A DNA stretch of 32,000 nucleotides from Acaryochloris marina MBIC11017 (GTDB lineage Bacteria; Cyanobacteriota; Cyanobacteriia; Thermosynechococcales; Thermosynechococcaceae): the NCBI RefSeq assembly GCF_000018105.1, contig NC_009925.1, positions 300,001-332,000 of the forward strand, read 5' to 3'. Positions within the stretch are counted from its first letter, which is position 1; every line of letters begins with the position of its first letter. The notes under the pieces are model-generated. The model searched no databases. It saw nothing but the letters and a program-made list of their open reading frames with translations, and had not been told where the DNA came from. The position numbers were made by a program, and so were the translations under genes. Positions 1,422 to 1,733 of this stretch are shown one piece after another.

Positions 1422-1541
1422 CCGCACCCCAACAAGAAAAGCTTACATACTTGGTTGAGTCCTTACTTTATAGGGAGGGCTGCAGGTTCAAATCCTGCTT
1501 TGCTTCGCGCAAAAATGCTTTTCATACTTGTGTGGATTTTT
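1422..1541 (+). ncRNA. candidate structured RNA 'unit A', tRNA-like / Y-RNA-like (YrlA-like?)
   Basis: Manual fold. Outer helix CCGCAC 1422-1427 / GTGTGG 1530-1535. Second 7-bp helix GAAAAGC 1436-1442 / GCTTTTC 1517-1523. Interior holds a canonical T-arm (GCAGG-TTCAAAT-CCTGC, 1482-1498), a 5-bp arm TCCTT/AGGGA (1460-1476) with a 7-nt loop, a GG-containing D-loop-like segment (1446-1455) and hairpin TTTGC/GCAAA (1499-1513). ATTTTT follows the outer helix. TATAAA (1412-1417) lies just upstream. Located directly 5' of a TROVE-like gene. Confidence 0.45.
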
Positions 1542-1603
1542 CAATTGGATATCGTGCTCTTCACCAGGTCGATGTCCTTCATTTTTTACTAATGGCAGTA
1601 TTG

Positions 1604-1733
1604 CCGCACCCAAACAGAGGGAGCTTACATACTCTCAATGGCCTGTTTCGCCTATCTCCATAGGCGAAACAGGCCGTCGCGAAAGCGAATTGCTTCCTTA
1701 ACTTGTGCGGTGCATCCATTGGGATGTGCTTTG
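1604..1733 (+). ncRNA. candidate structured RNA 'unit B', paralog of unit A (YrlB-like?), or a structured 5' leader of the TROVE/vWA gene
   Basis: The 5' 30 nt (1604-1633) match 24/30 with 1422-1451. Same two closing helices: CCGCAC 1604-1609 / GTGCGG 1705-1710 and AGGGAGC 1618-1624 / GCTTCCT 1692-1698. Three base pairs in the second helix are fully compensatory relative to unit A. Interior is a perfect 16-bp hairpin (1640-1655 / 1660-1675, loop CTCC) plus a GAAA-tetraloop hairpin (1677-1688). A further hairpin at 1712-1727. Confidence 0.4.

Follow-up and report, generated by a model that had tools for sequence, protein, structure and literature searches.

Two tandem RNAs upstream of a Ro60-like gene in Acaryochloris marina: candidate Y-type RNAs from a cyanobacterial family with one handle and exchangeable cargo

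The window analyzed here is a stretch of 32,000 nucleotides (nt) from Acaryochloris marina MBIC11017 (contig NC_009925.1, positions 300,001 to 332,000 of the forward strand). Within it, a spacer of 357 base pairs (bp; 1417-1773) separates the endonuclease V gene nfi (736-1416, Pfam E = 1.4e-73) from the ATG at 1774 of a gene for a 475-residue Ro60-like protein (1774-3201, + strand). The spacer holds two Y-like RNAs on the + strand, unit A (1419-1538, 120 nt) and unit B (1602-1712, 111 nt), both delimited by a covariance model, R1, and by folding. An earlier note on this DNA had placed two tandem candidate Y RNAs in the spacer, upstream of what it called a TROVE/vWA gene; the spacer is as it described, and the units lie where it put them, with natural limits slightly wider than those it gave. 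Our comparison with 80 cyanobacterial loci that encode an orthologue of the Ro-like gene identifies units A and B as real, conserved structured RNAs, with a signal far above chance, and assigns them to a large uncatalogued cyanobacterial RNA family in which one handle carries exchangeable cargo.

Units A and B and the handle they share

In the minimum-free-energy folds the ends of each unit form the two helices that had been proposed for them. The 30-mers at 1422-1451 and 1604-1633 agree at 24 of 30 positions, as the earlier note had counted, and the 3' parts of both units follow the pattern GCTTYYY-NN-ACTTGTGYGG, reading GCTTTTC-AT-ACTTGTGTGG in unit A and GCTTCCT-TA-ACTTGTGCGG in unit B. The covariation claimed for the second helix was also recovered: GAAAAGC/GCTTTTC and AGGGAGC/GCTTCCT differ by three compensatory pairs and one G-U pair.

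Unit A folds at -35.9 kcal/mol (z -2.7, minimum free energy). Its closing stem pairs 1419-1427 with 1530-1538 and is followed on the 5' side by the loop CCCAACAA (1428-1435), by stem 2 (1436-1442 paired with 1517-1523) and by the invariant UUACAUAC (1443-1450); AUACUU (1524-1529) forms the loop on the 3' side. The enclosed cargo consists of a 9-nt remnant of a D-arm (1451-1459), a 5-bp anticodon-like arm with a 7-nt loop (1460-1476), a T-arm (1482-1498), and an extra hairpin (1499-1513) within an 18-nt insert (1499-1516); the T-arm, the 5-bp arm and the insert are as the note had described them. The defects that it listed as disqualifying the unit as a genuine tRNA (C33, a 1-nt connector, and no nucleotide between the D-like and anticodon-like stems) hold, ARAGORN finds no tRNA in the window, and the match to the Rfam tRNA model, at 15.5 bits (E = 2), stays under the gathering score of 29. 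Model R1, built from an alignment of 45 tRNA-like relatives with the window left out, matches unit A over its full length at 58.9 bits (E = 3.4e-14); in this alignment the D-arm is deleted, the anticodon-like and T-arms align, and the extra hairpin is inserted. The closest orthologue of unit A (locus L092, 1934-2055) has the same D-arm-less architecture and extra hairpin, with compensatory changes in stem 2 and in that hairpin (UUUGC/GCAAA against UGUAC/GUACA). As this orthologue keeps the architecture with compensatory pairs, unit A is best classified as a D-arm-less tRNA-like RNA that is maintained as a variant and is not a random wreck.

Unit B has the lower energy, -54.7 kcal/mol (z -8.3, minimum free energy). 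Here the closing stem pairs 1602-1609 with 1705-1712, stem 2 pairs 1617-1624 with 1692-1699, CCAAACA (1610-1616) and AACUU (1700-1704) form the 5' and 3' loops, and UUACAUAC recurs at 1625-1632. The cargo (1633-1691) contains the perfect 16-bp hairpin (1640-1675) and the GAAA hairpin (1677-1688) that had been read from the sequence. Model R1 finds unit B at 39.5 bits (E = 7e-9), with the match limited to the handle. In the closest relatives, whose Ro-like proteins are 80-91% identical, the corresponding spacer holds three handle RNAs, orthologues of A and B among them. The gene-proximal RNA of these relatives carries what we call a class-6 cargo: a covarying hairpin GGUGCGUC...GACGCUGC, then GCCUG-AGACCGAUAG-CAGGC and often a GAAA hairpin, with compensatory changes in 14 of 28 pairs. 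Unit B has in common with these RNAs its position, its first bases and the 20-mer CAGGCCGTCGCGAAAGCGAA, and has a perfect 16-bp palindrome in place of the class-6 middle. By this comparison unit B is a remodelled class-6 member, and the palindrome, which has no further copy within the window, suggests a recent rearrangement. An Rfam scan of one class-6 relative gave no match.

Across the family the handle has a fixed order: closing stem, CCYRAY loop, stem 2 ending in AGC, YUACAYAC, cargo, GCU stem, ACUU, closing stem. The closing stem, made by the 5' and 3' ends, is 7-11 bp long; an asymmetric internal loop (5'-CC(Y)RAY... facing ...ACUU-3') separates it from a second stem of 7-9 bp, which is closed by AGC/GCU and followed by the invariant, single-stranded YUACAYAC. 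The consensus of the 5' strand is GYGCCCYRAY. The 10-mer GCTTACATAC, common to A and B, lies 5' of the gene in 77 of the 80 loci, usually twice and never on the opposite strand. A strict search of 84 loci for the whole handle (GCYTACAYA, 5 bp or more in the second stem, CTY, and 6 bp or more in the closing stem) returned 311 matches on the gene strand and 0 on the antisense strand. The geometry is the same in all 306 analyzed elements: 15 nt lie between the end of the closing stem and the GC closing stem 2, and the return takes 13 nt. In the Nostocales up to six handle RNAs per locus, all on a single strand, are interspersed with conserved genes. Even homologues of the Ro-like gene at ~30% protein identity are preceded by a tRNA-like RNA that a closing stem encloses; this stem is long and its internal loop is of the type CC...(C/A)UU.

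The orthologous loci thus provide the check on conservation and covariation that the note had asked for, and both helices covary. When 90 distinct handles are aligned without gaps, 14 of 18 pairs show changes on both sides; 336 cells are doubly changed, where shuffles give 100 ± 16. Covariation scores 0.561 for the proposed pairing, 0.254 for shuffles and no more than 0.21 for slid registers. The search criteria require pairing and so inflate the percentage of paired cells; the diversity of pair types is not forced by the search (one position, for example, has 46 UA and 42 CG pairs and zero mismatches). The near-invariant bases of the handle are mostly unpaired, namely CC and A in the 5' loop, UACAUA(C), and ACUU. 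In an independent RNAalifold prediction on the 45 diverse tRNA-like members, the two handle stems appear together with the D, anticodon and T arms, and 20 of 30 pairs are compensatory.

Over the 32 kb of the window, units A and B are the only significant matches to model R1, the next having E = 0.13. A palindromic hairpin over the stop codon of the Ro-like gene (3199-3263) matches the RNA model weakly on either strand (13 and 8 bits); it is probably terminator-like rather than a handle RNA. Rfam 15 returned no family at gathering thresholds for the whole window, so the scan that the note proposed as a check found no known class; a permissive scan (E <= 10) of 1380-1800 gave chance matches of miRNA hairpins on the unit B palindrome and the sub-threshold tRNA match. 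Among 2.9 million viral contigs the handle pattern occurs a single time (L089:5021-5045(-)), and the element is therefore not phage-borne.

The Ro60-like protein, the cargo classes and the conserved neighbours

The protein encoded at 1774-3201 is predicted to form a HEAT-repeat ring followed by a vWA domain with the MIDAS (metal ion-dependent adhesion site) motif. It is 100% identical to an A. marina entry annotated merely as 'vWA domain-containing protein', and its family comprises 1264 clusters at 50% identity. The MIDAS residues D300-x-S302-x-S304 (DxSxS) are invariant in 31 sequences. An AlphaFold2 model made from 31 homologues (pLDDT 77, pTM 0.66) was compared with the PDB using Foldseek, and the top five matches are all Ro60 (E = 1.7e-9 to 1.4e-7, TM 0.57-0.67): Xenopus Ro (1yvr, 1yvp), Deinococcus Rsr (2nvo), human Ro60 (9nen) and the Ro60 of Thermus phage phiLo (9l5y). 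These alignments span the whole length (483-538 columns), and the next match has E = 3e-3. With hhalign, the family profile aligns to a fragment of phiLo Ro60 over the last HEAT repeats and the vWA domain (88.9% probability, E = 2.4e-6). Sequence identity to metazoan Ro60 is 14-16%. A phmmer search of the PDB gave a marginal match, again to phiLo Ro60 (E = 0.047), Pfam and NCBIfam searches yielded no more than a sub-threshold VWA (VWA_2 in Pfam), and the vWA_Ro60 model (PF25045) matched two distant relatives weakly. Based on the model and the profile, the product is a divergent Ro60-like protein beyond the reach of TROVE sequence models.

The handles of the family carry at least six types of cargo. 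Class 1 mimics tRNA in canonical order and has an acceptor-like stem of 5 bp (CAUAC/GURUG); some of these cargos in relatives pass as tRNAs (54.6 and 46.2 bits with Rfam, and also in ARAGORN), all of them inside a handle. Class 2 comprises permuted tRNA mimics, in the order V hairpin, T arm, closed acceptor stem-loop and D arm (for example positions 1254-1394 of the Nostoc locus L018). Class 3 is a 22-nt hairpin directly 5' of the Ro-like gene, and class 6 is the gene-proximal covarying-hairpin module. The anticodon loop of the tRNA mimics is the most variable of the helix-bounded segments, with 39 distinct loops in 45 sequences and an entropy of 1.29 bits, compared with at most 0.68 bits in the handle, D-arm and T-arm. 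The variation spares U33 and the stems, and even near-identical Nostoc orthologues differ in the loop (alignment columns 60-66; L018:2427-2433 against positions 2445-2451 of L025, also from the Nostocales). This hypervariability explains the ARAGORN tRNA calls with odd anticodons at these loci, 'Pyl' and 'SeC' included.

Two further classes resemble 23S rRNA. Class 4 (~130 nt) matches E. coli 23S at 19 of 19 positions in 1916-1934 and 10 of 10 in 1904-1913 (z ~8). These stretches are both halves of H69 and the start of H70, and the handle sits at the position of the H69 loop. A. marina has one such RNA ~310 nt before the start of the window (L081:3739-3915, L081 being its locus in our set), right after the gene of a 66-residue protein; by sequence its cargo is a circularly permuted mimic of 23S H68-H71. 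Class 5 (~154 nt) lies 5' of the gene for p281, a conserved neighbour described below. It contains CUAGUACGAGAGGA, identical over 14 of 14 positions to the sarcin-ricin loop (23S 2652-2665), and a stretch with 39/50 identity to the GTPase-associated centre (E. coli 23S 1055-1104; score 45, null 21 ± 2), for which RNAalifold gives the known three-way junction. It was found in the Nostocales (L025:5545-5754, L018:4608-4818 and 28 other loci) and is absent from A. marina, where the Uma2 gene fills that spacer. Unit A, unit B, the class-6 RNAs and the small cargos show no similarity to E. coli 23S, 16S or 5S rRNA (z < 1.7) and serve as a negative control for the two mimic classes. Searches of the rRNA-mimic RNAs with Rfam leader families gave no match.

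Several other RNA elements stand near the handles. In A. marina an array of six tRNA genes (Met, Thr, Gly, Val, Ile-UAU, Arg-UCU) lies upstream together with a Macro-domain gene (L081:513-1725), and an aberrant tRNA with an extended (4-base anticodon) loop sits between the class-4 RNA and the p246 gene (L081:3966-4039). In Nostoc a mini tmRNA-like element precedes the first handle RNA (L018:453-536); it has an acceptor stem and a T-arm, ~30 nt replace the mRNA/pseudoknot part, and Rfam tmRNA gives 37.3 bits (gathering 47). Directly 3' of that first handle RNA, here (L018:755-800) and in most Nostocales loci, there is a module GUGAGUGUAACUCUCAC-AGGGAGGGU-AUCGGUUCAAUCCCGAU, a hairpin plus a T-arm-like hairpin outside the handles.

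Four protein genes accompany the Ro-like gene and its RNAs. The protein p246 (also p229/p240; 246 residues, 2-697, + strand, start 43 nt before the window) is encoded 5' of the Ro-like gene in 56-59 of the 80 loci (tblastn) and has no match in Pfam, NCBIfam, PADLOC or the PDB; Nostoc punctiforme has a copy in its genome as well. The gene for p281 (281 residues, 3970-4815, + strand) is present in 53 of the 80 loci and overlaps the start of an E1-like gene; p281 is 25-26% identical to neighbours of the distant Ro-like genes (E ~1e-19). No family matched it, its profile found nothing in the PDB, and its AlphaFold model is poor (pLDDT 57), which makes the Foldseek matches of that model meaningless. 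The E1-like gene encodes a 211-residue ThiF-family adenylyltransferase (4808-5443, + strand; Pfam ThiF 1.1e-26) and is syntenic in 39 of the 80 loci and in the distant loci L085 and L086. Its product matches the E1 domain of PADLOC E1-E2 models (1.6e-13) and, below the cut-offs, NCBIfam ThiF/MoeB/Cap2-like models. As PADLOC recognizes the E1 domain of ThiF only, the cluster is not a catalogued defence system.

The fourth gene encodes a protein of 66-76 residues ending in Gly (MVHIRFEGRS...RPEAVYG; L081:3531-3731, L018:846-1046, L087:1899-2120 and L085:3067-3297), found in 71 of the 80 loci and in distant lineages, always with the E1-like gene. No family model matched it. Its size, C-terminal Gly and E1 neighbour give it a putative ubiquitin-like nature, and the pair suggests a ubiquitin-like conjugation module. 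The distant loci keep p281, ThiF and the small protein among their features, and one of them has a weak match to a Prok-JAB peptidase (L085:7135-7569).

In A. marina two lineage-specific genes, nfi and a Uma2 gene (3316-3885, - strand), are inserted into the conserved cluster. The nfi gene, whose product endonuclease V cleaves RNA and DNA that contain inosine, is found again at this place in two close or related loci (L009 and L091). The L091 cluster also contains an R2K-type ATP-grasp gene and a PemK toxin gene. A gene that A. marina lacks sits between the tRNA-mimic RNA and the small hairpin RNA in 25 Nostocales loci (for example L025:2562-2777); its product has 71 residues and a C-terminal SEC-C/SWIM-like metal-binding motif.

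Possible roles of units A and B

We consider it about 70% probable that units A and B serve the downstream Ro-like protein as Y-type RNAs, with the handle docking on the protein and the cargo acting as a tether or bait. This reading builds on the observed sequence, structure, covariation, synteny and Ro60 fold, and follows from an anatomy that is that of a Ro60/Y RNA system: a terminal stem with a loop, a variable module, and adjacent RNA and protein genes on the same strand (PMC4201824; PMC12135203). The units would be expressed as stable, discrete non-coding RNAs and act as partners of the ring protein. By analogy with Ro60-Y RNA complexes, the handle would dock on the ring and display a module that differs from RNA to RNA, a remnant of a tRNA-like L-shape in unit A and a lineage-specific long hairpin plus a GNRA hairpin in unit B; other members display a full mimic of tRNA, in either orientation, or one of functional centres of 23S rRNA. 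Factors that recognize tRNA or rRNA may be tethered or baited by the cargo, which could target or gate the ring protein, and the ring protein may act together with the small Gly-ended protein, the E1-like enzyme and the two proteins without assigned function.

Several points weigh against this reading. Searches with the Pfam TROVE model (PF05731) at E <= 10 matched neither the window protein nor 10 distant relatives, so that its TROVE similarity exists at the level of fold and profile only; of the 'TROVE/vWA' label in the earlier note, the Ro60 fold, the hhalign match and the MIDAS stand and the Pfam TROVE domain does not. The profile of the Ro-like family found no match among PDB sequences. 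The handle has no GNCGAA/CGAA motif, the element thought to contact Ro60 in known Y RNAs (PMC4201824, PMC12135203). The 16-bp hairpin of unit B looks recently rearranged, and its cargo may for this reason not be functional. A consensus scan found no sigma-70-like promoter, and within 1300-3400 nothing on the plus strand resembles a terminator except the T-arm of unit A itself (1482-1498); with no promoter or terminator to bound them, the units may be cut from a longer transcript. Finally, unit B ends 20 nt from a leader that can sequester the Shine-Dalgarno sequence, and could act in cis.

The last point leads to an unlikely alternative, in which the units are cis-acting parts of the 5' untranslated region of the Ro-like mRNA and not free RNAs. 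The leader (1733-1773, + strand) consists of GCGUGCAA (1733-1740), CUGCCUCCU, a loop and AGGAGG (1763-1768), which lies 5 nt before the ATG; an anti-Shine-Dalgarno CCUCCU (1747-1752) is contained in CUGCCUCCU. The same order of motifs follows the last RNA in ~30 distinct cyanobacterial leaders (for example L018:2955-3000), with a loop of variable length that is sometimes repeat-expanded, and the whole resembles a hairpin for translational control. When bound to the gene-proximal handle, the Ro-like protein or some other factor would switch this hairpin and provide translational feedback. Nearly all loci have a handle RNA ending 10-60 nt before the GCGUGCAA..CUGCCUCCU..AGGAGG..AUG leader, the scan placed neither promoter nor terminator between unit B and the gene, and GCGUGCAA is, judged by eye, partly complementary to the 3' strand of the handle (UUGYGCG). 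Most handle RNAs, however, are far from the Ro-like start, either 5' of other genes or intergenic, at up to six per locus, and an operator would have no need of elaborate tRNA- or rRNA-like cargo. For unit B the two roles are not mutually exclusive, and a cis role in addition to that of a Y RNA is plausible.

It is improbable that the elements are simply processing punctuation, at which RNase P, RNase Z or RNase III cuts a polycistronic transcript, with no other function. Their placement between open reading frames on one strand fits such a role, as do the tRNA scores of the canonical-order cargos and the fact that YrlA of Mycobacterium smegmatis is a substrate of RNase P (PMC4201824). The highest conservation, however, is in the unpaired handle bases (CC, A, UACAUAC, ACUU), which are not determinants of RNase III or RNase P. 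The same handle also carries cargos unrelated to tRNA (rRNA mimics, class 6, 22-nt hairpins), and two or three units are often adjacent without an open reading frame between them, in the window as elsewhere. This pattern of conservation argues against punctuation and equally against tRNA debris: that the units are functionless, decaying tRNA pseudogenes or a repeat remnant of a tRNA array or mobile element would suit the six tRNA genes 3-5 kb upstream, the aberrant tRNA, the lost D-arm of unit A, the perfect palindrome of unit B and the unrelated nfi and Uma2 insertions, but is very hard to reconcile with a handle that has fixed, covarying geometry across cyanobacterial orders, strict orientation (311 against 0), co-inheritance with the Ro-like gene even at ~30% protein identity and a match in one viral contig only.

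Within the Y-type reading, the nature of the cargos and neighbours allows a wider proposal, which we regard as doubtful: the ring, the Y-like RNAs, the Gly-ended protein, the E1-like enzyme and the two unassigned proteins could form a surveillance or repair system for the translation apparatus that works by displaying baits. Each handle would hang on the ring a replica of the target of an RNA-damaging toxin, be it a stem-loop with a hypervariable anticodon, the sarcin-ricin loop with the GTPase-associated centre, or 23S H68-H71; the mini tmRNA-like element nearby might be a further replica, its attachment to a handle being putative. Ro60 threads RNA ends through its cavity. Damage to a bait, or binding to it, would be sensed by the ring and signalled through the vWA/MIDAS domain and ubiquitin-like conjugation. 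In the A. marina version, two of the baits would be units A and B.

The purpose of bacterial Ro60, and that of the tRNA-like modules of Y RNAs, has been a standing question since 2014. The present family offers a natural experiment, in which one handle, predicted to bind the protein, is combined with at least six types of cargo, several of which copy tRNA or 23S centres. Candidate partners are factors or toxins that recognize anticodon loops, the sarcin-ricin loop and GTPase centre, or H69-H71. If the Y-type reading holds, the Ro60/Y RNA system extends to a large clade of proteins now labelled 'vWA domain-containing' or 'hypothetical', together with RNAs that are missing from Rfam.

Comparison with known Ro60 and Y RNA systems

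Ro60 orthologues are known to have Y RNAs within 4 kb on the same strand, with tRNA-like modules (PMC4201824), and in Thermus phage phiLo the Ro60 protein has two upstream Y-like RNAs as ligands (PMC12135203). Units A and B lie 62-355 nt 5' of the Ro-like gene on the + strand, and folds, covariation and RNAalifold agree on a long stem formed by the paired ends with a conserved internal loop. We found no description in the full-text literature of this handle, or of a Ro60/Y RNA system with a sarcin-ricin loop or rRNA mimics.

YrlA has been described from Salmonella Typhimurium, M. smegmatis and >250 species (Chen et al. 2014, PMC4201824). The units resemble it in their Ro60-type neighbour on the same strand, in their paired ends with an internal loop and in a distal part that mimics tRNA, and the permuted class of relatives (L018:1254-1394) has the exact YrlA order. 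They differ in that the GNCGAAN0-1G motif is missing, with GYGCCCYRAY...YUACAYAC in the handle instead; the 5' strands CCGCACCCCAACAAG and CCGCACCCAAACAGA contain no CGAA, the motif that defines YrlA and YrlB. The permuted domain of YrlA, with the Ro stem at the anticodon position, is likewise lacking in the units and present in the sister class: unit A has canonical order, the handle at the acceptor end and no D arm, and unit B has no tRNA-like part. The partner protein is missed by Pfam TROVE, and the neighbours are not RtcB/RtcA. Rfam 15 gave no YrlA-type match to the units at E <= 10, the presence of a YrlA model in Rfam not being established. With GNCGAA absent, unit A oriented as in Yrn1, and no match to an Rfam model, the units are not members of YrlA or YrlB; the earlier proposal stands in the sense that they would work like Y RNAs, and not in the sense that they are YrlA or YrlB. 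Chen et al. 2014 surveyed TROVE-annotated genomes only and listed few cyanobacterial YrlA RNAs (PMC4201824); the permuted class may partly overlap their lists.

Unit A has the layout of Yrn1 of Deinococcus radiodurans (PMC4201824), which also has its stem at the acceptor position, an anticodon-like arm between D-like region and T arm, and a weak or absent D arm. The two have no sequence similarity, Yrn1 keeps both strands of the metazoan-type Ro-binding helix, and Yrn1 tethers Rsr to polynucleotide phosphorylase, a link not known for unit A. Unit B stands to unit A as YrlB of Salmonella and phiLo Yrl1/Yrl2 (PMC12135203) stand in their systems, as a sibling that is not tRNA-like, carries the same protein-binding module and lies in tandem upstream; theirs is a CGAA bulge, whereas unit B has the cyanobacterial handle and a class-6-derived cargo. 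The 39/50 copy of E. coli 23S 1055-1104 in relatives, with the same three-way fold, recalls the mimics in ribosomal protein leaders of the L10/L11 type, but is found inside a Y-like handle, beside a copy of the sarcin-ricin loop, and not in a ribosomal protein operon.

In the metazoan system, where the proteins are 14-16% identical to the one here, a terminal stem with a conserved bulge or internal loop likewise carries a variable distal module and is paired with a protein made of a HEAT ring and a vWA domain with MIDAS, and the ACUUG on the 3' strand of the handle may resemble CACUUGAC of vertebrate Y RNAs.

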